A stretch of DNA of 60,261 nt, filler included, from Sphacelaria rigidula (Eukaryota): NCBI GenBank assembly GCA_964200075.2. It is 10 parts of 10 records of this genome, joined end to end, with 100 filler letters (N's around TTAATTAATTAA, not from the genome) between each part and the next. Parts side by side here need not be neighbours in the genome. Positions count along the whole stretch, not along the records: positions 24,148 to 30,083 come from CAXNAA020023352.1; 9 more parts are not named here. One strand, 5' to 3'. Below the pieces are notes generated by a model, which saw nothing but the letters and a program-made list of their open reading frames with translations, was not told the origin of the DNA and searched no databases. Both the position numbers and the translations under genes were made by a program. Below, piece after piece: positions 5,938 through 57,539 of this stretch. Position 1 is the stretch's first letter, and every line of letters begins with the position of its first letter.

Positions 5938-6037
5938 NNNNNNNNNNNNNNNNNNNNNNNNNNNNNNNNNNNNNNNNNNNNTTAATTAATTAANNNNNNN
6001 NNNNNNNNNNNNNNNNNNNNNNNNNNNNNNNNNNNNN
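5938..6037. other. Artificial contig-joining linker (N44-TTAATTAATTAA-N44), first of nine
   Basis: Identical 100-bp linkers at 5938-6037, 11975-12074, 18012-18111, 24048-24147, 30084-30183, 36120-36219, 42156-42255, 48192-48291 and 54227-54326. TTAATTAATTAA gives stops in all six frames. Segment lengths fall monotonically from 5937 to 5935 bp. Confidence 0.97.
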
Positions 6038-11713: not shown

Positions 11714-12074
11714 GTACCCCCATTACTTGCGGTGGAATCACCTGTGATCCCCAAAAAGTTATTTCAGGTCATAACTTCTTGATGAAAAATTAGAATATTA
11801 AAAATCTAAGTGTCTGATCGTTTCGTCTCTCGCTTTATGGATAATGATCCTAGATTATTCAAATTTTGACCAAAGAGTCCTGCTGTAATACGGGGGGGGG
11901 GGGGGGGGGGTGGTCCCCCAAAAATAAGGGTTAAGTGGTTTTTCGGAGGACCGGACACACGCGGGGGGCGGGGGNNNNNNNNNNNNNNNNNNNNNNNNNN
12001 NNNNNNNNNNNNNNNNNNTTAATTAATTAANNNNNNNNNNNNNNNNNNNNNNNNNNNNNNNNNNNNNNNNNNNN

Positions 12075-18011: not shown

Positions 18012-18111
18012 NNNNNNNNNNNNNNNNNNNNNNNNNNNNNNNNNNNNNNNNNNNNTTAATTAATTAANNNNNNNNNNNNNNNNNNNNNNNNNNNNNNNNN
18101 NNNNNNNNNNN

Positions 18112-21100
18112 GCCACACGCATCGAGTTCCTAGGCCATTATATCAGCCCTGACGGTCGTAGCCCCAACCTCGACAAAGTTGCCGCACTTAGAGAGATGCC
18201 CATGCCACGCGATGTCTCTCAACTGCGCTCTTTACTCGGTGGTTTGAGTTACTACCGCCAATATCTGCCAAATTGAGCCCAAGCTCTAAAACCCCTCACC
18301 ACCCTCCTCAAGAAGGGGGTGAAATTCGTGTTCACGTCGGCAATGGAAAAATTTATGCGAGAGAAGCTCGACACATTGTCAAAGCCGCCAATTCTGGTTT
18401 TTCCCGACTGGTCAGCTGCTGAAAATGGCTCCCGTCCGTTCCGACTGCACACGGATTCTTCGAAAATTGGGTTTGGCTGCACACTGGAACAGGAACAAGA
18501 CGATGCTAGTGTTCGCCCCATTGAATATCTGAGCCGAACCACCAACCCAAACGAACAGAACTGATCCGTCATGGAACAAAAAGCCGGTGCAATTGTTTGG
18601 GGAGTGCGACGACTCCGGCAATATTTGTATGACCTCCCGTTTGTGGTTTATACAGACCATAAGTCTTTGGAAAACCTCGCCAAAATGGCGGAACACAACG
18701 CTCGGGTTCAGCGCTGGTTTGAAATCCTGTCTTCCTACAGCTTCACGTTGAAGTACCGCACAGGTCCCCAAAACGCAACCGCCGACTTCCTGTCACGCTT
18801 GCCCTTGCCAGCCCAACCCATCGACAACTCCGCCTTGGGTCGCATCACAGACCCCACCGAAGACATTCTATATTTCATAATCACAAATGGTCATCGCGGA
18901 CTCTATACTCCACTCTCACTGAACCACAACTCGGCATTGTTTTAAAATAAGCTGACGCCTTCGGCTTACGCTTCTGTATTGGGCAGTTTGGCCCCACGAT
19001 CGTTGTGTTCAGTTAAAGGTGAAATTCGGGCAACTACCGGCGGGTATGATCAATTTCGTGCGTATGGTCATCGGATGGTTTGCACTGTAGAGCCGGTTTC
19101 TACTGACTGCGTCCTCCCGGTTCAAGTCCGAGACCTCATCTCGAGCCGGACCCGAGGACGCCGGGCCGCGGAAACGGCTGCCGCCCTGGCAGCAGCCGGC
19201 CCAGACCTCCCCATCCCCAACCCCATTCCAGTCCCCGATAGCCTCCTTGCGCCCCCGTTACCTCCACGGCGCAAAGCCCCCAGAAAATCGACACCTTCCA
19301 AACCACCTCTGCCCACCATAGTCGAGATCTCGACTGTGCCTCCCCCACCCCGTGTAGTCCACCTCCGGTACCACGCCATCCGACACCCTCCATAACGTAG
19401 GAATAGAGGTGAACGTTCCGTTTGAGAAAACACTGACCACCCCTTCTGCCCTTGATCCAAATAACGCCCCGTGTCCATCCCACAGCGATTCGATCCCCTG
19501 CGTTTTGGACAAACCCCCCGACAGTGTATTCAAGGAACTGACCCTCTTTTCTCACGCCGGTTGGGCCCGGGAACAGCAAGCTGAACCTGCTTGTAATGCA
19601 GCTATACGTTATCTATCCAAATGATGCCCCTCCCCCTTTCCAGAAGCTGGGTTCCTTTTGCCAGTAGGGCCCCACCGAGCCCCCAGACAGGCTGAATTAT
19701 CGCGTAAGGGAATGCTTTACACGGATGATAATGGCGTTATTCTTTTAGTTCACCGGCCCCCCACAACCCCTCCTGGAGGGAAATCTACTCGTAGTCACGC
19801 CCGTTTGTTGGGTGATGCCCCCGTACGTGTTTATGTTCCGATGCTTCTGCGTCCATGGGTTCTCCATGAATGCCACTCGCAAGCATCCACGCATCTGGGC
19901 GTCGCTAGGACATCTCAGATGCTTCAACGTTTTTTTCGTAGATTTGTATGGACCAATGGGTGCGTTGGTGGGTTTGGCGGTGTCTTCTTTGCCAAGCACG
20001 CAAAACTTCACGTCAAACAGTGAGATGACCGGTAATCTCTATGCCCCTTCCCAATGGGCCTGGTGAAATAGTTTCATGGGACTACTTTGGCCCCCTGCCC
20101 CTGACTGGTAGTGGTAACAAGTACATTTTGTTGTTTACGGATCGGTTCAGTCGACATGCTGTGATGAATGCTGTTTCGGAGGCCAATTATAGTGCAGAAG
20201 GGACTGCCAACGTCCTTGTGTACACATACATCCCTCAGTGGGGTGTCCCCAAACGTTTGTTATCCGATAACGGCCCACATTTTTCCGGCAACCTTTCTGC
20301 CGCGATCAGTGATCTCCCGGGTGCCCATCGTACTTTTACTAGTTCATACCATCCGTCCACAAACGGTGGGACCGAACGAGTTAATCACACGATGGCGCAA
20401 ATGCTTGCCACAGTGACCAATGAGCGACAAACGGGCTGCGACCTGCACTTGCCCCTTGTCCAAATGAACTGCAACAACTCCGTCACTGCCGCCACAGGCA
20501 TGGCTCCCAATGAAGTTCATATTGGTCGTATGCCCAGGCTGCCATTGACAGTGTTCGACAGGAAACCCCCTGGTGATCATCAGAGTTTGGATCGGGATAT
20601 CGTGGAGTATCATATGTCTGCTAGTAATCGCCTTCGTCTTGCATATGAGGTGGTACGGGAGCAGAATTTGATCAACGCAGCAAAGGTAGCTAGGGCAAAC
20701 CGCGTGTTGGATGATGCAGTGAACCACCGTCCGGTCTACAAAGTAGGTGACTGGGCGTGGGTGTATAACGATGTGAGAACTGTAACCCAAGGTGCGAGCT
20801 CTGCTAAGTCGTCGTCGGATAAGGTGTTGAAGTCGAAGCTTTGCTTGAATCGGACTGATCCTTGGAAGATCTTGGCAGTTGGGCCCTGTGATACCGCCCC
20901 TAACGATAAACCAGTAGGTGAGAAGCTTTTGTATTTGTATTTTCCCACGGATGAACCTGGCGTCAAAGCCAAAAACCGGGTATCGATGCTTCGGTGCAAG
21001 CCGTGTCTGCCCCCTCACGACACTAGTGATATGCCCAAGCAATTGCCTATGGGGCTCGGTCAGTATGTGCTAACCAGGTATGCGGCGAAACCCCCCCCGT

Positions 21101-21729
21101 AACACATGACCTTCGAAGACGCTGACGGTCCTCTTGAACATGTAGTGGTAGATCGCATCTCGGGCCACTAATTAGTTCGAGGTCGAGGCGGTAAAATTGC
21201 GGTTATGTATCAGACCCACTGGAAAGGCCTCATGCGTGTTACGTGGGAACGGGAAGAGGATTTGCGTCATTTTCGAAGAGAGATTCTTTTATATTGGGTC
21301 GGAGATGTCGTCCAACACCGCCCGTTGAACCAACGATATAGGTATATGCGAAAAGGCGCAGCAGCTCGTGAACTGGCCCGAGAGCACTCGGCACGATTTG
21401 TCATTTCGGGCTATAGTCTGATTTCTCGTTCGCAATACCTGCGCTCTTTTTCGAAGAAACGTTTGCCGAGAGGTGCATATTTTTCGTACAGGGCTATGGA
21501 TTCGCGGTGGTGGCTGGGGAAGATTTATTTGATAGATCCTGAGGCGGACGATTCCTACTACATCCACTTCCTCGATGACCCGGGTCCTCTCAAGATCCGT
21601 CTCAACGACGATTATTATACCGAGATGCCGACCGCTCGCCGAGGATCTTGGTGCCTACAACGACACGACAAAGGGGACATCGACACAGCTGTCTTGCGCA
21701 ACCTCGACACGGCGTGGAACACGGAATAA
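18112..21729 (+). pseudogene. Ty3/Gypsy pol, 3' half: RT end, RNase H, integrase (HHCC, DDE, GPY/F-like), chromodomain, Tudor-like tail
   Basis: IEFLGHYI and LRSLLGGLSYYR (RT); LHTDSS, YTDHKSL and NATADFLSR (RNase H); HECH...THLG (zinc finger); SWDYFGP/LSDNG/NGGTERVN (DDE); YQTHWKG..VTWE (chromodomain). Several in-frame stops (e.g. 18562, 21100, 21169) and frameshifts are present. Confidence 0.93.
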
Positions 21730-23784: not shown

Positions 23785-24147
23785 TTTTGGGATTGTATGG
23801 TATGACCTTAGCTATGTTGATTTAGGGGGCGGCGAAGCGCGTTCGAAATAGTAGCCCCGACGATTACTCTCTCTTCTCATCCCGGTTTTTGGCTGCGATT
23901 CACCAGTTTTCCCATTGGAGTATCTCTACAGACCGCGAGAAAGTGAGTCCCAGAGATAAGAGCAGTAGTCGGGCTGCTGTTGTGTCTGGTGTGTTTTATT
24001 GATCAAAGCTTAGGCCTGTTTCGGTTTATGTTGCATTAATGTTCTGTNNNNNNNNNNNNNNNNNNNNNNNNNNNNNNNNNNNNNNNNNNNNTTAATTAAT
24101 TAANNNNNNNNNNNNNNNNNNNNNNNNNNNNNNNNNNNNNNNNNNNN

Positions 24148-24201
24148 GGAGCCCCTGAACCAGACAAAGTTTCGCGAAAAAAGTGCACCCCTACCGTAGC
24201 A
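24148..24201. mobile_element. Right end of a TGCTACGGTAGGGG-TIR DNA element, abutting Gypsy gag
   Basis: GGAGCCCCTGAA...CCCCTACCGTAGCA. The same end occurs at 36440-36494, and the inverted (left) end at 30024 and 35688. Confidence 0.6.
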
Positions 24202-27200
24202 TTGCTCCGACACCCCTTTTGACCACTACCTCAAGGAATTTCGCACTTTAATTTCGGTTACGGTAAACGGTGGCAGCGAAGCTGCCCCATCACAACAAAT
24301 AGTTATGAGTATTTTCCGTTCCAATATGGGACGCTATACCCTAGCCTCATGCCAACCGTCTTTGTCGGTACCGCAGCTACTTCACCGGTCCATTTGACGG
24401 ATGCAAAACAGAGTGGCTCCTCCGCAATCCACAACGGCCCCTCTGTACGGCACAGCCACAATGCTTCCGCCACCCTATTGCCTCACCCGGTTGCCGCTCC
24501 CCCTGAGTCTCACTCCCAACCACCACCTTCTAAAACAAACCAACGCCCATGGATTCCTGCGCCTATGGCCTCTACTGGGGAGGTCATGTTCGCACACACC
24601 CCAGACGCATTCGTTTTCCAAGCTGGCCCTTAGCGACGGAAATTTGGCCGGAAGTGTTTCAGGTAAACACTTCCATGAACACAACAGACCCTCCCCCTCT
24701 GGGCCAGTAAGGGAGACCCTAACCCTCGATCAGATGTAATTCGCCGCTGCAAAGATCACTGCCTGAACTGTGGCATTTGGTTCAATCCTCAAACGGGGTA
24801 CTCCGCAGATGGTCAAGTTCCAGCGCACTCGATGCGCCAATGCGAAGCCCCGTTCACAAACGCATTTGGCGTACTCAACCCCATGTTCTCCGAGCCCCAG
24901 TTTGCGCGCTTTTGGCCAACTTGGCAAGCACGTATGCAGTCTTACCGTCGCCCTCAACCCAGCGGCGCCCGCAATTCATACCAACGCCCCCGGCGCGGCA
25001 ATCGCCACTACAATGGTGACACTCGCGCCCCCCCTCAATACCAACATTCCTATTATCACGCTCAGCCCGCTAACGTGGCCCCCTCTCACGTACCGCCCGC
25101 CCATTCTGGCGCTTTTCAACCGCCAAACCAGACTCAACACCCAAGTACTCCTAACCCCCCCACAAACACATCTACTGCCCCGAACACAGCCCGCCAGAAT
25201 GGGACCCACGACTCTACCGATGCCAAACGTACCACCTGACGGTGTTTGGGAAACGCACAACACTCCGCGTTTCCACATCTCCGACGGGTTACCTCTACGT
25301 GTGTGACCGCTTGTAACAATTCGCCGTCACCCTCTTTAAATTTTTATAACACTTTTACTTTAAACCCCATTGTCGACCACAGGTTCACAGTCGGGCTCCA
25401 ACAACCTCCAACAACGAACCGCGGCAATACATTTTCTTTCACTCAGCCAGTGCACCATCATCACTTAACAAAACCCTCGTCGGCCAGCGTGGGTTCTCGC
25501 TTATGGTGTGGGTACGCTAGCGATGACCGTTCTGTCACGATGGGTTCCATGACAGCACAGTCCCGTGCAACATTGCATGACTCCCAAATGCGTAATGACC
25601 AACCCCAGTGTTTTCATATTGGATCTGATCACCCAGTTATATTTCCGAGTGGTAGTAATCAATGCCAATTGGATCCGATCGCCTCGCGGAATCGGCAGTC
25701 GTGTAGCGTAGCGCTTACCGCAATAGCAGCAGGAACATCTTCTGATACGGTAGCTATTACCCCCACGACCGTTCATCGTAGGATAAAACGTTTACAGAGA
25801 CTCCCCAGCCCCGAGAAGGACTCAGGAGTCCAGTCGACCCCGGTAACACATGCGTGCAAAATTCCGCGTGTGCCCGGTCCCCTTTTATTTGGTGAGCGTA
25901 ATTTTTCGTGCACCACGCGCGCCAGTGCCGAATCCTTGCTTCCCGTAGCTCAGCGGGTTGGGAAGGAACCCCAAGCGACAGTGCCGACCACGCGCCACGC
26001 GTGTAGCCACGAACGGACTGACCTTGCCAACTTTCCAAAAGCCCCTGGAACAGCCGGCTCTAGAGTGCGCTATACGCGACACCAGAAGAAGGCTCTGCCG
26101 GATGACACTGTAAATAAACCTGTAGTTGCCGCTACATCCGCCCACCAAGAAGGTGCCCGAGAGCCGGGCACAGCAGATGAAGGCCTTGTCGTAGAACAGG
26201 TCGGTCTTTCCCAGATTCCGAACAGATCAGCACCGCTTCCTGCCGACCCCTCGGAATCTATGTTGAAGAATGAAGTAGCGTTGACACCTGTTGGGACAGT
26301 AAAACCGCTACGCCCTGCATGTATGTCTCATGGTGCCGGACAAATCCCGGCTGTGCCGTCCAAATTGCAGTCCGATCAGGACTGTGTCTCCCCTGTTTCT
26401 CATAGCTTCAACATCTCCACATCCACTTCCTTTCCTAGGCGTCGTCCATCCCTGACTGTGTACGAAATCCAACTTTCGTCTACTGCACCACACGCCCTGC
26501 AAAACCCCCCGTGCCACGACAGCCCTTCGGAAAACACATTCGTTCCGGAGGATCAATATCGAGTCTATTTTAGTACCATTGCGCAACAACACAAGAGCGA
26601 TGTGGCTATAGATCACTTGTCGGAATACAGATCGGACTTGGTAAGTGGAACTGCACTCGTGGATGACGCCTCCTTCACAGCCCGAATAGGTATACATAGT
26701 GGAGTGCATGCATCACGCCCTTTGATGACCGTTGCCCTGCCCGACACCGGCTTGCCACAAACTTTCATCACAGCCAGCTGCTGGCAACACATGATGAACG
26801 GTGGAGGAGCAGATAAACATTGCCTTTCTACTGTTCCGCCGCGTATTTTTGGCGGGTTTGGTGCCTCCACTCCCTTTACGGTTGATCGATCAGCAAGACT
26901 CAGAGTGCAATTCTTCGATGACACGAGTCCCACTGCACGATTACCTGTGTGGGCACTCATTGTGCCCGATGGTTCCATGTCGGTTGATGTTCTCTTGGGA
27001 CGTGATAGCTGGCTACGTTTTTCCACACATACATACATGACAAACTCACCTGTTTTGAACCGACCACTGACAGGCAGATTGAAATTGGGACATCACGACG
27101 CTGATCCAGGGGCTCAGGCCTATGTCGATGACCCAACACAAACAAGTGATGCTTTTCGACTGTATTATGTCTGAGACCACGTCGTCTCTCTGTCCCGTGA

Positions 27201-28807
27201 ACCTCAACACATCCATGTGAATCTTGTGAGACGGAACGGATCCCCCGCCCTCACTGGACAGTACTTGGTCGCCTTAACCAATCCCAACCAAACCCCAGAC
27301 GGTATTCCCCTCTTTGATCAGACCGATGTATTTGTCCATGAGGGTCGGCAATCCATTCTCCTCACGTCCTCTGCATGTGTCGATGTCCTCCCTGGTCAGT
27401 TGTTGGGTTCTGTCGAATGTATGTCTGAAGGTGCCACCGCAAACATCATCAGACAGCTCAGAGACAAACGGTTCCACTTCGTTCGACAAGACTGATCCCA
27501 TGGTTGTAGACGAATCGACTGATACGCCTGACACAAACCCTCCGACTGCCCTACTAGATACATTCTCGCCAGAGCAACGTGTTAGTTTTCAACGATTATG
27601 GGATGAAATTCTCCCCCATTTGAAACACATTGCGTTTGGTTTATCTGGTGAGGGTTGGACACCCACGGTAATTGATCGGTTGCGCTTCATCTTGGTACGA
27701 TACTCTGAACGGTTTTCCAAATTGTCAACAGATTTAGGCCGCTGCAACACTATACCGTTGAAAATCAACATTCCTGAAGGTACGACACCTATCGCCATGC
27801 GTCCGTACCGTACAAACCCTCTTCTAGCGGGTAAAACTCAAGTAGTTCTCGACGAATACTTTTCCGCCGGGTTAATACGGCACTCAACGTCTCCGTGGGC
27901 GTCGCCTTTGGTAGTCGTCCGGAAGAAGAATGGTAAGATCCGACTGACCGTCAATTATCAACGATTGAACGCAGTCACCACAACCGCACGTCTACCTCTT
28001 CCCCGGATAGATGAAATCATCGACTCCCTCGGCGGGGGCAAAGTTTTTTCGAACTTCGACATGCAGTCCGGTTACCACCAACTGGTGATGGATCCGCACT
28101 CTATCGAGTTGACGGCGTTTTGCACCCCGTCAGGTCTATATGAGTGGCTGGTCACTCCACAAGGTGCCGCCGGCGCCCCAGGAGCGTTTCAATGTGTGAT
28201 GTTTCGCGTCATTGATGGACTGTCCAAATGCCGCATGTACCTCGACGATGCGGTGGTTCACGGCAGTACACCTGCTGAGCACGTCGAGCATTTCGTGTTC
28301 TTCTTTCTCGTTTTGAACAACACAATTTGAAGCTCGCCCCATCTAAATCCCGCATCGGAGCCACGCGAATCGAGTTCCTAGGCCATTGTATCAGCCCTGA
28401 AGGTCGTAACCCCAACCTCGACAAAGTTGCCGCACTTTAAGAGATGCCCATGCCACGCGATGTCTCTCAACTGCGCTCTTTACTCGGTGGTTTGAGTTAC
28501 TGCCGTCAGTATCTGCCAAATTTAGCCCAAGCTCTGAAATCTCTCACCACCCTCCTCAAGAAGGGGGTGAAATTCGTGTTCACGTTGACAATGGAAAAAA
28601 TTGTAGAGAGCAGCTCGACACATTATCAAAGCCACCATTTCTGGTTTTTTCAGACTGGTCAGCTGCTGAAAATGGCTCCCGTCCGTTCCGACTGCACACG
28701 AATTCTTCGAAAATTGGGTTTGGCTCCAAACTGGAACAGGAACAAGACGATGCTAGTGGTCGCCCCATTGTATATCTGAGCCGAACCACCTACCCAAACG
28801 AACAGAA
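24202..28807 (+). mobile_element. Ty3/Gypsy element, 5' half: gag (CCHC knuckle), UGA, long spacer, aspartic protease, reverse transcriptase, start of RNase H (pseudogenised)
   Basis: gag has CLNC-x18-HSMRQC and ends at TGA 25237-25239. In-frame ORF 25246-27174 has ALPDTG and DVLLGRD (protease). ORF 27314-28330 has SPWASP, NYQRLN, FDMQSGYHQ, PQG and YLDD (RT). 28360-28807 is a diverged match to 18112-18560. Confidence 0.93.
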
Positions 28808-29471
28808 GACACCTTCTACGATAGCCCCCCCCCAAAAAACTGCAACTTTTTCCGCCTCAAAATTTACGAATCACGTGTTTTGAGCAAAGCACAAATTGGT
28901 CAATTTTGACGAGAAATGCTGGTTTATGATCCCGTCGAACCAAGGTCAGGTGGCTTCAGAACCACCTCATTGCACCATCGAATCTGCCCATCATAGACCC
29001 CTCAAAAGGTGCAACTGGTACCACCTCAATATTTACGAGTTGCGTGTTTCCAACAAGCACATATTTGTCACTTTGCCAAGATTTGCTGGTTCATTATCCA
29101 TATCATAGGGCTGATGGCGTGTTTACAGGACACCAGACTTCATCGGGAAACTAATCGTAGCTGGTTTCAGAACCATTTTATCGCGCCGGGGTAGTCGTGT
29201 GTACACAAAGGCGGCCAACCCCCCCCCTCCCACACACACACAAACAAAATAGTGCAAGATTGCCTGTCTGACGATCTGCGATTCGCGTGTTACCTAAAAA
29301 ACCGTACACTTCTCGCTTTCCCAATATTAGCTCGTTCACGATCTATCTCATAGCAGCGACTATATTGAGTGTTTGCAGAAAACGAGAATTGCTCGGGAAA
29401 CTAACCTTATGTAATTCGATAATCACCACTCCGCACCAGAGTAGTCAGTGGTGTGTACACAGATGCCACCA

Positions 29472-29517
<46 letters not shown>

Positions 29518-29660
29518 CCCCCTGTAAAAGCAGCATGCGAATTCGATCGCCTCTAGAAATAACAATCGCGTGTTATGGAAGAGACACAAACTTTCTCGCT
29601 TTGCCAAGGTTTGCTCCTTTGCCATCCATCTCATAGTAGCGTTGGTCGCGTGTTTTCAAG
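28808..29660. mobile_element. Left end of a larger GACAC-TIR DNA element truncating the Gypsy RNase H, with decayed ~250-280-bp subterminal tandem units
   Basis: GACACCTTCTACGATAGCCCCCCCCCAAAA starts exactly where similarity to the other Gypsy copy stops. A GCGTGTT...CTTTGCCAAG...ATCCATCTCATAG motif recurs near 29042, 29285 and 29567. The right end was not found. Confidence 0.6.
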
Positions 29661-30657
29661 TAACTACGTAGTAGATATCGTTAAAACAATCACAGCTAAT
29701 TTCTGAACCGGCTATCATGCTGGTTTTTGAACCAAACAGTGGATTTTCGGAGATGAGGTTGAAAGAACAATTGAGGCTCAACTCAACAGCCGTGCTTTCC
29801 CTGACCTGAATTCTTAACAAATGACTTTCATATGGACCACCCCATCCCTCCCGACCTCCCTCAAGCTATTTCGCGGGATTCCTAGCCTTCCGTTCCCCCA
29901 AAGGGGACGTGCGAAAGCACGAGTTTTGGTCCAAAAAAAGTCCTTTTTATCACCACGAAATCGAGGCAAACGCGTGCTTTCGCACATACCCTTTGGAGGA
30001 ACGGAAGGCTAGGAACCGAGTGATGCTACGGTAGGGGTAGAGAAATAATTTCTGAGATTAGAATTGTTAGGAGCCCCTTATCTNNNNNNNNNNNNNNNNN
30101 NNNNNNNNNNNNNNNNNNNNNNNNNNNTTAATTAATTAANNNNNNNNNNNNNNNNNNNNNNNNNNNNNNNNNNNNNNNNNNNNCAATCCCTTTCCCTCGT
30201 CGACCGTTGAGTCGAATTTTTTGTACCCACGACATGGTCGCTCTCACTCGCACTAGGTGAGAAATTCAGCTATGTTTTAGGTTCTATCTACGGGCCGCCC
30301 CTGGAGGGTTTCGGAAAGTCGTTTTTTTCTTGTCAGCGTAGACTGTTTTTCGGCCGAGAAAGAAACGTAGGCCACCGGAAATAGTAAAGGTTCCGGAATC
30401 GTCTCAACGGGTATAGCAAGTCATTCCAGGGTGCCAACATCCGCCCAGTCATCTTTGCGGGCGAAAAAATATGCAGAAGCATCAAGGAGAAAGTTTTGTA
30501 GGATTATTTTCTTGTTTCCCGAGAGCAGCGACCTTGCGGTTGTTGTCCTTTTTTTGTTGGACATTTCAGTTTCGGGACATTGGGTCCAGTTTTTAGCATC
30601 CAAACAGGGAATATCGCGGTTAAATACCGTGGACACTTTGCACCACCCCATCGAGAG

Positions 30658-52960: not shown

Positions 52961-54464
52961 GTGAGTCGTGATACGCACTGCGTGTTCTGTGTGGACCCAA
53001 CCGAACGCGGCAAGAGATTCATGCTGGTCCTGTATTTGTGCACAACGGTTATTTTAGTCGGAATCCGTCGGCGAAGATCGGTGTGGTTTTGATTCGCAGA
53101 TAACCCGACTTGATTCGGCCGAAGTGTTGTTGTGATCCATTGACTGCACTTTTCACGAAAAACAACGATGTGGATATCTTTGTTGTACATGCGTGCAATA
53201 CTACGTATACTGCCAAAGGTTACTCTTCCGGCTCCTCCTGCCGGAGGCTGCTCTCGTAGTTGCTGTTGCCGAAGATATTTCGAAGCACGGCGTGTTTTCT
53301 CTGGTTGTTTAGGGCAATGATTGACCATGAGCTGGTGTATAGATAAATGTAATCTCTTGGGTGTGATGACTCTTCCCTTTTGAGTTACTAGGGGTACAAA
53401 AGATGAACAGGTGAAGTTCCACAGCGCGTCGGGGCCTTTCGCCCATGCCACTGGCGGAACAGTTCATCCGTGGGGTATTCAGCCTTCCTAGCTCCGCATG
53501 TTATACATGGGTGTTCATACTACGCATACGTACAGTATGTTCCGCACTACCTCTCTCTTGTACGTCTCAAGTTTCGTCGTTGGATATATGAGGGTGATTA
53601 TTTGGGAAGAGGGTGCCGTTAGCGTGGATTCCACTACTAATAGTGTTGCTCTCTGATACCGTACGTACGCACGGGCTTATACCTTATACCTGGTCTCGTC
53701 ATAATATTTGTATATATCCCGTGATGTGGAGTAAGCACCTCCAGCAGATTATATCGGCGTCTAGATGTAAAGTCATGTCAAAAGGATATACTATCTTCGG
53801 ATATTATATGGCACAGCTGTTTGCTTGCCAAACCTTCAGCCCCATGGGCGGCAGATGCCACAGATCGACCCCAAGTCAATCACTGCAGAGACATGACGAC
53901 ATCGATAATTAAAGTATTCAAAATCATGCCTCTTGACTTGCGGATCCTCCTTTCCTCGGGGTCGAAATATGAACCTTCGTGTCCGACCTCCAGTGCCTGG
54001 GGTATGCAGCGTGTAACGGGGGGAAGGTTGTTAAGACGAGAACAACAGAAGCTCGTAGCCTGTACGGCGAGATCGTCAAGCTTGATTTGTAGCGACAATT
54101 AACTTGCCCTCCTCCTACGGATTTGAACGCTTGCCGAATACCGTTTTAGGTCTACGGCTAACAGTGTTTTCGTGAGATTGAGAGTAGATGATACGATTGA
54201 GAGTGAAAAGCGGTCAATCAGTGAATNNNNNNNNNNNNNNNNNNNNNNNNNNNNNNNNNNNNNNNNNNNNTTAATTAATTAANNNNNNNNNNNNNNNNNN
54301 NNNNNNNNNNNNNNNNNNNNNNNNNNGACCTGCCATTTGTGGAGGCAGAGACAATTCATCGTCGAGTGCAAGACGGCGTAGCTCCGTCCTTGGGATTTCG
54401 GGAGCTCCACCGCCCCCCCCGTCGTTGCGCTCGGGGGTGTCGACGGTTGTCGGTGTTGTTGCTG

Positions 54465-54667
54465 TCAGCGTTGGCGGCGGCGTTGTTTCTGTCGGCGGCG
54501 GCGGCGGTGACGTTGCTGTCGGCGGCGATGTAGCTGTCGGCGGCGGTGTTGCTGTCGGCGACGGTATTGCTGTCGGCGTTGGCAGCGGCGATGTGGCTGT
54601 CGGCGGCGATGTGGCTGTCGGTGGCGGTGTTGCTGTCGGTGGCGGTGTTTCTGTCGGCGGCGATGTG
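54465..54667 (-). repeat. 18-bp coding tandem repeat (PPTAT[S/P]) in the Copia INT-RT linker
   Basis: GTGGCTGTCGGCGGCGAT-type units on the plus strand. Confidence 0.8.
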
Positions 54668-57293
54668 GGGGGCGCTGATCCCCCGTCATCAATGAGATGT
54701 CGGACAGGGTTGTGTAAAATCCCGCGCGACCCCCCCGCTTCTGCAAGGAAGCGGCGAGGTCATCTCAGCCCCCTCGCCAATAGCGGGAGTCTGTTGTGCC
54801 GCTTCTGTGTCCAGCTCTGGGTTGGGGAGCAAAAACGATACGTGCCGTGAACTGCGGGGTGAAGCACGCGCCGCCGGAGTTTGTCGTTCCGCGGACTCGC
54901 TGCCGGCCGTCCCTCCCTCGATCTTCTAATCCCTCGCTCCGTCGGGCGTCGGAGTCGCTTGCTGTGGGGCAGGGAAAGGAGTCGGGGGAACATACGCCCA
55001 TGTTACGTGCCTGGTCGTAATAGTTTGTCCTGTTTCCGTCATCACTCTCATAGTATCGCGCGGGTACCCCGGGGCTGGGCTAAGGTACCAGCACCTCTGA
55101 GCTTTTCGTTGTAACTTGTCTGTTCTCTGCACTCTACAAAATCCTGGCTTTAGAAAAGGAATAAGGTTGTTTTCCGGTGGTACTCCGTGCCACATTTCGT
55201 GTGGCGTCTTGTTTCCCGGGTGAGCCGAGGTCGCAGTACAGTTCAAAGCATGGCATGCCCAGTTAGCGTGTTCCGCCAACAGATTTTTGCTATTTGGGAT
55301 GTTCTGGTTCGGGTACATCTCCGATGCCTCAATTTTGGCTGCAAGGCCGGCCGCCTCTATGATGTCAACTGCACGCTCCGCTATGCCATTGAACTTTGGG
55401 GAGTCGGCAGTTGTTTTCTCTTGTTTTATTTTCTCTCTATCACATAGCTCCTCGAACGCCCCCTCCGAAAATTCACCTCCATCATCACTGCGGACATTCT
55501 CGATTTTTCGTGGGTAAATCTCTGCGATATATTTACTAAAGTACTGTACGGACTCGTCCTTTGTGCGCAGAAAAAGTAATCCAGGGTGTCGCGAGCAATC
55601 ATCGCGTACTATCATCATGTACGACTTTCCTTCCCGAGATCTAACTGTTTTTGGGCCTGTGAGATCAACAAACACTCTGGAAGCTGGCTCAACTGCTCGT
55701 GTATGGGTCAATCTTGGGATGGGCTGCCGAAGTTCCTTTCCTTCCGAGCATCCTCGGCATGGTTCCAACTCGCCGCGCAGCTCCACTCCAAGCTGCTATG
55801 CAGTTCGCCGGAGCAGGTCCTTGTGAACATGCGCATGTTTGCAATGGAAATCATCTATGTCTTCAACTTGGGGGTTGGGAAGTTTCCTCGGGGCAATCAC
55901 AGCGCATGCTGACGCATGCTTGTCATGACCATTCGGAAAGATGCTGTGGGCGTACATTAATAGTTGTCTGTGTTGACCGGGGATCTTCAGGGTATTGCCT
56001 GATTTCAACTCAACCCGGAATCCATCCCTAGACTCAATGTAGATGTGACCCGCGTTGGACATCCGGGTCAGTGACAACAGATGGTGACGGACACAAGGTG
56101 CGTGGTCTACATTTTTCAAGTGTAAGACTATATCTCGTCCGTCAGATTGTAAAGATAGAGCCAGGTTACCTCTTCCTACGATCGGGTAGGTACTACCACC
56201 CGTGCACCGTAGTACCCTTCCACTGCATTTTCTATAGTCCGTCATCATACTTGAATCCGGAGAAAAATGCGAAGTGGCCCCCGTGTCAAGTACCCACGGT
56301 TCGCCCCCATCTGACTGTTCTACTTCCCCCTTCCCAGCTGCAAACGCATACTCGCCTGGGTTGACCTCGTCCACCTGCATGTCGAGGCTGGTGAACGCTT
56401 CTGCATCAGCATCCGAACAGACGGAGTCGTCGTCCACCACGTCTTCCGCCACGCCAATCACGATCGCCGTGTCCTCCACAGTCGCCGCGTCCTCCACCGT
56501 CGCCGCGTCCTCGACAGTGGTCTGACAGTCAATCAAACTGTGTCCTCTCTTCCAGCACCTAACATAACGCCTGTCAGGACAGTCTCTCGCCCGATGTGTG
56601 GTCACCTTCTGACAAACGTGGCACCTCCACGACGTCGCAGCCCCCGACTGGCTCGTTGACGATGAGGCCGGCGACTGGTTGTTCTTGCCCTGCTCCCCGG
56701 TACCTGCGCGACCTGGGTCCTGGGTCTTTCCCGGCTGACCTTTCCGGTGTGGACCGTTACGTTTGCCGTGATGGCCCTTGACAGCAAGGGCCTGGTCGCC
56801 CGGGGAAGCCTTCTATCCCTTGGCGAGGTCCTGCTTGAAAAGTGCCGGTTCGAAACGTTTTCGAACCGACGTCACTACGACTTCCCTCATGAGTGGACCT
56901 TCGCGCTCCTCCAAAGCCTGTTTTTGGTAGTTATACTCGCAAGGAAGCGCATTGACAAATTCTGGGAGGGTTTGCGCCCCCGTCAGGACAATGTTGCTGT
57001 CGTGTGATTGTAACTCTCTCGCCACCTCTTCCATCTCGATTAGTTCTTGAACAGGATCATCGCGAAAATCAATCTTCACGTGATCAAATTTTTCTAGAAG
57101 AGCTAATCTAGCTCCGTTGGTCTTGGGGCTGTAGAAATCATTAAACTCACGCCACACGGCTGCTGGAGACGGAATTCGGAGCAAAACATCCCGGTCCCGC
57201 TTATGTTCGAGACTTGCCACCAACATTTGCCTCGCTCTCACGTTTGCAGCAACAGTGCCCTTTCCGTGCCTTGCTTCAAGATAACTCAAGGAT

Positions 57294-57539
57294 GACACTT
57301 TCTACGACAGCCACCCCCCAAAAGTGCATGATTTTGGGAGGCAAAATCTTCACGTAAATCGAAATGGGAAAAGCCGAGCACAACGAGAAGCTGGTTAATC
57401 CCACGGTTGGGTTCGTTCTAGTCAATGTTGCCAATATGAGGCGCTTCGTGCAGCCTAACCCGAACATCAGGCGCTGTATGGTCATTCGTTTCGTGACACT
57501 TTTAGCTGGTTTTGGGGGGGGGCTATCGTAGAAAGTGTC
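57294..57539. mobile_element. GACAC-TIR MITE (246 bp) inserted in Copia gag
   Basis: TIRs GACACTTTCTACGACAGCCACCCCCCAAAA / TTTTGGGGGGGGGCTATCGTAGAAAGTGTC, with a perfect 4-bp TSD GGAT (57290-57293, 57540-57543). Confidence 0.9.

Follow-up and report, generated by a model that had tools for sequence, protein, structure and literature searches.

A candidate UGA readthrough junction between gag and pol in an abundant Ty3/Gypsy-order retrotransposon family of Sphacelaria rigidula

The closest described counterparts of the junction analysed here are the fission-yeast Tf1/sushi elements Tj1, Tosmo1-3 and Tcry1, which resemble it in their Ty3/Gypsy domain order, in the one in-frame TGA, in a pol lacking a start codon and in the C after the stop (PMC10085805). 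In Tj1 the stop is reported to be essential for transposition (Guo et al. 2015, as cited in PMC10085805). The present junction lies in a 60,261-base stretch of DNA from Sphacelaria rigidula, referred to as the window, in which a gag-like open reading frame (ORF) ends at an in-frame TGA and continues in the same frame towards a protease. The stretch around this stop is the gag-pol junction of an abundant long terminal repeat (LTR) retrotransposon family with Ty3/Gypsy order, and the copy at hand is dead. We consider it reasonably probable that active copies of the family carry the stop and would make Gag-Pol by UGA readthrough, with stimulation by a hairpin that follows the stop. A first-pass annotation of the same DNA had contrasted this arrangement with most Ty3/Gypsy elements, said to use frameshifting or a single ORF; given the fission-yeast cases, the rarity claimed for such a stop was overstated (PMC10085805). 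The two systems also differ. The strictly conserved fission-yeast octamer GAA-TGA-CT (PMC10085805) is not found here, where the corresponding letters are ACC-TGA-CG. Moreover, whereas no 3' stem-loop is described for those elements in the accessible sections of PMC10085805, the junction here has one, together with about 467 codons between stop and protease and a host of brown-alga type.

Further points of comparison come from RNA viruses. Alphaviruses and several plant viruses have UGA-CGG as a consensus context for readthrough (PMC3159437), and work cited in PMC10085805 ranks C after UGA as the most permissive context. In the window, UGA is directly followed by CGG and the downstream ORF is in frame, as in the type of signal described by Firth et al. 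2011. The UGA-CGG or UGA-CUA sites of alphaviruses, virgaviruses and coltiviruses have spacers of 7-12 nt (PMC3159437), a range that includes the 9-nt spacer after UGA-CGG here. Their stems, on the other hand, consist of 10-12 or more bp around an enclosed 100-150 nt and are supported by compensatory changes (PMC3159437), whereas the structure here is a local hairpin of 8 bp, or of 15 bp if counted from +1. We read the likeness to these sites as one of mechanism, not of ancestry or membership, the element here being a retroelement.

Among retroviruses and retroelements, the gammaretrovirus murine leukaemia virus (MuLV) likewise has gag and pol in one frame, one stop between them and a structure about 8 nt downstream (PMC3159437, PMC4178896). 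It uses UAG and a pseudoknot, whereas the stop here is UGA and the pairings that could form a pseudoknot do not exceed 4 bp, so the junction is not of the gammaretrovirus type. Tca2 of Candida albicans also has gag-UGA-pol in one frame and a 3' structure, in that case a pseudoknot, in an element of the Ty1/Copia order (PMC2194720). Taken together, the junction looks to share its principle with the known in-frame-stop retroelements and not their motif, and its context and hairpin look closer to the alphavirus and plant-virus type. Leng et al. 1998, reportedly on the element Skipper, is cited in PMC10085805 for a further in-frame stop between gag and pol.

The in-frame TGA, its continuing frame and the stem-loop

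The window consists of ten pieces, each of about 5,936 nt, linked by N44-TTAATTAATTAA-N44 (linkers at 5938-6037, 11975-12074, 18012-18111, 24048-24147, 30084-30183 and so on). Because it is a composite of joined pieces, features on separate pieces are not genome neighbours. The junction lies in the piece at 24148-30083 (5,936 nt), so that the genuine context of the TGA extends for only about 1.1 kb on the upstream and 4.8 kb on the downstream side. Its features are:

24223..25236, + strand: 3' part of gag, with the 5' end cut at the piece boundary 24148 (from distant relatives)
25237..25239, + strand: in-frame TGA at the boundary between gag and the downstream polyprotein frame (from reading of the sequence)
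25240..25283, + strand: stem-loop directly after the stop (from folding, pairing and sister letters)
25240..26640, + strand: conserved region of 467 codons from the stop to the protease (from protein relatives)
26641..27171, + strand: protease region, holding DTG (26743-26751) and LLGRD (26992-27006) (from motifs)

The sequence reads ACC ACC TGA at 25231-25239 and then CGG TGT TTG in the same frame, which agrees with the first-pass annotation. The frame 24679..25239 carries on as 25240..27174, a run of 644 sense codons where 642 had been counted before. The earlier remark that no ATG lies near the stop proved correct, as the frame offers no ATG before codon 101, at position 25540. Across the 467 codons from the TGA to the protease region this frame contains no stop, against 20 and 25 in the other two, and it is therefore open beyond chance.

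Protein relatives were sought by an exhaustive profile-free search of 1.84 billion representatives, which returned 24 matches, all short fragments and three of them at 85-90% identity. The region 25240-26640 is covered by 15 fragments: twelve distant relatives (P0004, P0007-11, P0013, P0014 and P0018-21) at 26-45% identity to the window, and the close relatives P0001 and P0002 (88-89%) and P0025 (87%, a cluster member). Common to them are the blocks LWCG, TVHRR, VPGxLLFxERN, VAQRVG and VRYTRH. As judged from these sequence comparisons, the downstream frame is a real protein-coding region. The LWCG block (25501-25512) lies upstream of the first in-frame ATG and is kept in the window and in four of the 16 aligned proteins (P0004, P0008, P0009 and P0025), which are all those that reach the position. 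With a conserved block ahead of the first ATG, translation must either come in from further upstream or begin at a codon other than AUG.

An alternative explanation is that the stop is a genuine feature of the family and pol is nevertheless reached by another route: an internal promoter, a subgenomic or spliced RNA, a non-AUG start, reinitiation or a non-canonical bypass like the one proposed for Tca2. The Tca2 precedent speaks for it, since the junction of that element alone gave no readthrough and a minor internal promoter was found (PMC2194720), as does a hairpin that is weaker here than the proven viral stimulators. It is opposed by the lack of an in-frame ATG for 100 codons, by the conservation of LWCG upstream of the first one, and by the fact that gag and pol share a frame, which readthrough needs and the other routes do not. 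Splicing also finds little encouragement in the contigs of sister copies introduced below, where no GT..AG joint crosses the stop among 15 of the 28 contig joints across the aligned stretch; the nearest joint runs from 24880 to 25225, with CC..CC ends and a skip of 344 nt, which 3 does not divide, and occurs in one contig each in two runs. We regard such a route as quite improbable, and readthrough of the UGA as the reading to pursue.

Downstream of the stop, the upper stem of the hairpin pairs GGAAACGC (25249-25256) with GCGTTTCC (25267-25274) in a perfect 8 bp around a 10-nt loop (25257-25266), following a 9-nt spacer; all the coordinates first reported for it hold. Lower pairs join 25247-48 to 25276-77 and 25240-44 to 25279-83, and it is only when these, which begin at +1, are counted that the stem reaches 15 bp. 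The isolated hairpin has a folding energy of -10.5 kcal/mol. The 60,261-base window contains 34 perfect 8-bp hairpins with a loop of 3-12 nt, which puts at about 1.2% the probability that a given site has one starting within 21 nt of it. A 106-nt fold gave z = -2.24, with 3 of 200 shuffles equally good.

The folding of the 44 nt after the stop depends on which letters are used. With those of this copy the energy is -15.7 kcal/mol, a stability that 8 of 1000 shuffles match. Position 25280, however, is A in all sister contigs and T in this copy, and while A completes the lower stem, T removes a pair. With A in place, CGGUG (25240-44) pairs with CACCG (25279-83) to give an interrupted 15-bp stem-loop that begins at +1. 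Using the two sister letters (at 25264 and 25280), the energy falls to -19.9 kcal/mol (z = -4.9), with none of 1000 shuffles as stable. This places the fold within the most stable 0.13% of the 4,629 segments of 44 nt across 24208-28880, second only to one other place in the element (around 24990). The structure is stronger in the family than in this copy. A long-range stem between 25237-44 and 25321-28, which includes the stop itself, was set aside because it would unwind when the stop is decoded. A search of 24148-26000 against Rfam gave no match at E up to 1.

The stop in sister copies and in distant relatives

Sister copies were compared using Logan contigs from four runs (X1, X3, X4 and X6, the last of them perhaps RNA) of three studies, aligned on 24148-27300 at a likeness of at least 80%. 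The numbers of matching contigs were 6655, 4715, 5441 and 328, and with thousands of matches the retroelement family must be abundant. The differences considered are the best-supported 40 of 270 between the sister contigs and the window copy. In almost all of these 40, every sister contig departs from the window copy, marking the differences as private mutations of the latter. Two features of this copy are resolved by the comparison:

24611..24692, + strand: locally out-of-frame segment that holds the apparent gag stops at 24631, 24664 and 24676 (from contigs and the match to P0006)
27172..27174, + strand: TGA stop private to this copy (from sister contigs)

The caveat, raised at the outset, that this copy has other inactivating stops was well founded: there are three in gag (24631 TAG, 24664 TAA and 24676 TGA), a TGA at 27172 and a change of frame before the reverse transcriptase (RT). 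The stop at 27172-27174 is private, because every aligned contig has T in place of C at 27171 and G in place of T at 27172 (14/14 contigs in X1, 18/18 in X3, and 15/15 and 1/1 in the remaining two runs). In gag, most sister contigs have 7 extra nt after 24610, with depths of 620/686 in X3, 952/975 in X4 and 6.3/6.3 in X6 but only 993/5052 in X1, and some lack 1 nt at 24692 (10%, 46%, 6.5% and 0% of depth in the four runs). The other frame of 24612-24701 gives RFPSWPLATEIWPEVFQVNTSMNTTDPP, which matches the relative P0006 with 15/28 identities (E 7e-11). Since the contigs differ in this way and the other frame matches P0006, the three gag stops are frame artefacts, produced by a private 7-nt deletion and one extra base. 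The gag of the family thus appears open up to 25236.

The TGA at the junction behaves differently. Among the best-supported 40 of 270 differences there is none at 25237-25239, none in the CGG and none in either arm of the 8-bp stem. Two private neighbours, 25264 in the loop and 25280, are present at 100% share (7/4/8/1 and 4/4/4/1 contigs), from which it follows that the contigs reach the junction and do not otherwise contain the window's own letters. A difference at the TGA common to all sisters would outrank rows that are listed, such as 24711 with 3 contigs, so the TGA is probably shared by the sister copies, or by most of them. All four of the other checkable stops (24631, 24664, 24676 and 27172) are private, and the TGA at 25237-25239 apparently is not.

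Coverage gives a further view of the family. In the DNA runs, k-mer depth over gag and the junction is 6-10x below that over 25420-27300, with the step falling within 25314-25420. Junction-bearing copies are therefore part of a larger group that shares the downstream region, and the step suggests several subfamilies with common pol-side sequence and diverged or different gag tails. In X1, 1530 of the 6655 contigs are at least 99% alike, which suggests recent amplification of this lineage. No other copy of the junction is present within the 60,261-base window, the only further match being one of 449 nt in RT and RNase H at 18112-18560.

Only one relative extends across the junction in register: P0005, a protein of 246 amino acids from a 1,144-nt Logan contig, 38% identical to the window's gag over 185 aligned residues. 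In the alignment (...AKRTT*RCL in the window, ...AESATWRCF in P0005) it has tryptophan opposite the stop. Some proteins of the collection from which P0005 comes translate only with TGA read as tryptophan, and the W could stand either for a TGG codon or for a TGA that the gene caller read as Trp. P0005 has lost all four conserved tryptophans of the domain and gained two new ones, the second of which lies opposite a CAA codon of the window. That residue is most simply derived from an ancestral CGA that changed to CAA on the window's side and to TGA on that of P0005, which hints weakly, by parsimony, that the tryptophans of P0005 are TGA codons, and the one at the junction may therefore also be TGA. 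Serine is possibly at the site in P0009 (E 0.21 against P0005) and in P0023 (in the MAFFT alignment only), both of them unreliable placements in a fast-evolving tail.

Wider searches for the junction were negative. The 830-amino acid readthrough product had no match among proteins of near length, and residues 240-440 of an 806-amino acid product gave 76 candidates among shorter proteins, none of them significant. P0005 as a query recovered only itself. No related DNA was found for the junction protein in viral and metagenome contigs, or for the gag alignment in metagenome, viral and prokaryote genome contigs, and a 26-nt pattern of the hairpin had no match in viral and genome contigs.

These observations bear on an explanation without recoding, namely that the TGA is a functionless nonsense mutation (from TGG, for instance) in a sublineage with a single ORF, spread by trans-mobilised copies or carried by a minority only, and that the hairpin beside it is a coincidence. 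Several facts would suit it. The copy is dead in several other ways, through its gag stops, the TGA at 27172, the change of frame before RT and the loss of likeness to a second copy after 28807; the tryptophan of P0005, if encoded by TGG, is one transition away from TGA, and P0009 and P0023 may have serine; the sharing of the TGA is deduced from the best 40 of 270 differences; and the depth profile makes junction-bearing copies a subset. Against this, the four other checkable stops are private and this one is not, and a nonsense mutation would have had to fall at the exact gag/pol boundary, in the leakiest context and in front of the second most stable 44-nt fold, an unlikely coincidence (about 1% for the structure alone). 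The contigs at 99% likeness or above, with the recent amplification they suggest, also count against a functionless stop. On balance we think this explanation unlikely, although it has to be taken seriously, and we retain readthrough as the preferred account.

Organisation of the element and other features of the window

Beyond the junction, the features of the element and its second copy are:

24760..24843, + strand: zinc-knuckle-like C-X2-C-X17-H-X4-C in gag (motif only)
27278..28327, + strand: RT-bearing ORF, RVT_1 with E 3.4e-18 (Pfam)
28410..28880, + strand: start of RNase H, RT_RNaseH_2 and RT_RNaseH (Pfam and blastn)
18112..21729, + strand: second copy of the family, on a separate piece, from the C-terminus of RT through RNase H and integrase to a C-terminal ORF, without the gag-pol junction (blastn and Pfam)

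It is reasonable to regard the upstream ORF as gag, its C-terminal region being nucleocapsid-like with a basic tail. The relative P0016 matches 24223-24611 (E 5e-23), while P0005, P0006, P0012, P0015, P0017 and P0022-24 match 24679-25236. Pfam gave no gag or zf-CCHC match to the gag part 24223..25236. P0022, P0023 and P0024 have a canonical C-X2-C-X4-H-X4-C at the place of the zinc-knuckle-like motif, relative to which the knuckle of the window carries a 13-residue insertion.

At E up to 1, Pfam found no family for gag, the 467-amino acid region or the protease region, the only matches being two sub-threshold helix-turn-helix ones. The AlphaFold model of 25240-27171, built with 17 aligned rows, has a mean predicted local distance difference test score (pLDDT) of 39.7, with values below 50 throughout the 467-codon region, which is accordingly predicted to be disordered. 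The only part of the model at pLDDT 65-78 is a small segment of beta-strands in the protease region, where DTG and LLGRD (26743-27006) are what we take to be the motifs of a retropepsin-like protease. At 467 codons, the stretch between gag stop and protease is unusually long for an insert in an element of Gypsy type.

The protease and RT frames overlap by about 217 nt (27278-27495), with RT in the +1 frame, which may be a private 1-nt indel or a feature of the family. The second copy is 92.9% identical to 28360-28807 over 449 nt by blastn, the likeness ending at 28807. In Pfam it matches rve at 33.6 bits (cut-off 32.6), and Integrase_H2C2 below its cut-off. The order protease, RT, RNase H, integrase, put together from two copies that lie on different pieces, is that of Ty3/Gypsy elements. 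No pair of LTRs was found in the window, and the 5,936-nt piece is too short for a whole element. After the integrase, the second copy has an open ORF of 185 codons (21172-21729) without a significant Pfam family, which may represent an extension of the integrase at its C-terminus or a part resembling a chromodomain. Among named proteins, the best relatives are two entries titled 'unnamed protein product, partial [Sphacelaria rigidula]' at 87-89% identity (90% for P0001 in the initial search), in agreement with a brown-algal origin.

The start of the junction piece (24148-24207) holds a motif of about 40-60 nt whose summed k-mer depth is roughly 100x that of the retroelement (1.39 million vs about 11,000 in X1), and hundreds of contigs diverge just past 24207/24208. 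This is an extremely abundant short repeat, which may mark the 5' truncation of this copy.

Two further features lie elsewhere in the window. An element of Ty1/Copia type at 54929-57301 (- strand), with Retrotran_gag_2, Pol_BBD and rve, has three ORFs that share one frame, with a lone TAG codon between each and the next, at 56815-56813 (TAG-AAG) and 55798-55796 (TAG-CAG); these codons could reflect decay or recoding. A tandem array at 54445-54669 has an 18-nt period (9-nt sub-period) and is rich in GGC/GTT.

Proposed readthrough as a source of Gag-Pol

In the mechanism that we propose, gag would end at the in-frame UGA, and pol, which lacks a separate start codon, would follow on in that frame. 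The majority of ribosomes would halt at the UGA and yield Gag, while a small share would decode it with a near-cognate tRNA and yield Gag-Pol. Readthrough would be favoured by the leaky UGA-C(GG) context and by the stem-loop right after the stop, the 8-bp top of which lies 9 nt downstream, in the position where known stimulators act.

A number of points weigh against this mechanism. The codon before the stop, ACC, ends in C and so lacks the A of the virgavirus motif, although CGx and xxG fit. The upper stem has only 8 bp, compared with the 10-12 or more of the viral stems (PMC3159437), and the longer 15-bp stem starts at +1 and would be partly unwound with the stop in the A site. A pseudoknot was considered and rejected, as pairings between the loop and downstream sequence reach at most 4 bp, and the UGA of Tca2, with its 3' pseudoknot, gave no readthrough in a yeast reporter (PMC2194720). 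At the level of the family, the letters of sister copies at 25237-25239 are deduced and not read, so that a minority, even a sizeable one, may have a sense codon; the lower depth over the junction confines it to part of a larger group; and only part of the depth shows the loss of 1 nt at 24692 by which the frame of gag is restored. Finally, if the W of P0005 is TGG and the alignments of P0009 and P0023 are right, the relatives have sense codons and the stop is young.

The first-pass proposal of virus-like readthrough therefore stands in part. In its favour are a TGA that is apparently not private, the UGA-CGG context, the hairpin, the absence of a nearby ATG and the position of LWCG upstream of the first one. 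Less well supported are the presence of the stop beyond the family and a close fit to the viral model, as relatives do not clearly have the stop (W in P0005, possibly S in P0009 and P0023), the stem has 8 bp and the -1 codon is without A.

At the readthrough site of alphaviruses, strains switch between an opal codon and a sense codon. By analogy, this stramenopile Gypsy family could have independently assembled the cassette of alphaviruses and plant viruses, using it to set the ratio of Gag to Gag-Pol, while related families toggle between Trp or Ser and UGA at the same position. We hold this wider scenario to be possible, if doubtful. If it were true, a family that toggles its cassette would provide a natural series for following how a retroelement with a single ORF turns into one that uses readthrough.

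The present case does not widen the range of Gag-Pol strategies already known, because Ty3/Gypsy junctions with an in-frame TGA have already been described (PMC10085805). We found no brown-algal case of such readthrough in the literature, which was covered in part. For annotation, the lone in-frame TGA at the gag-pol boundary of this family should not be counted as decay, in contrast to the remaining stops of this copy. If real, the junction would add a stramenopile host, and a context of UGA-CGG plus hairpin, to the few LTR retrotransposons in which readthrough is known or suspected, and it would provide a compact natural readthrough cassette for tests in brown algae.

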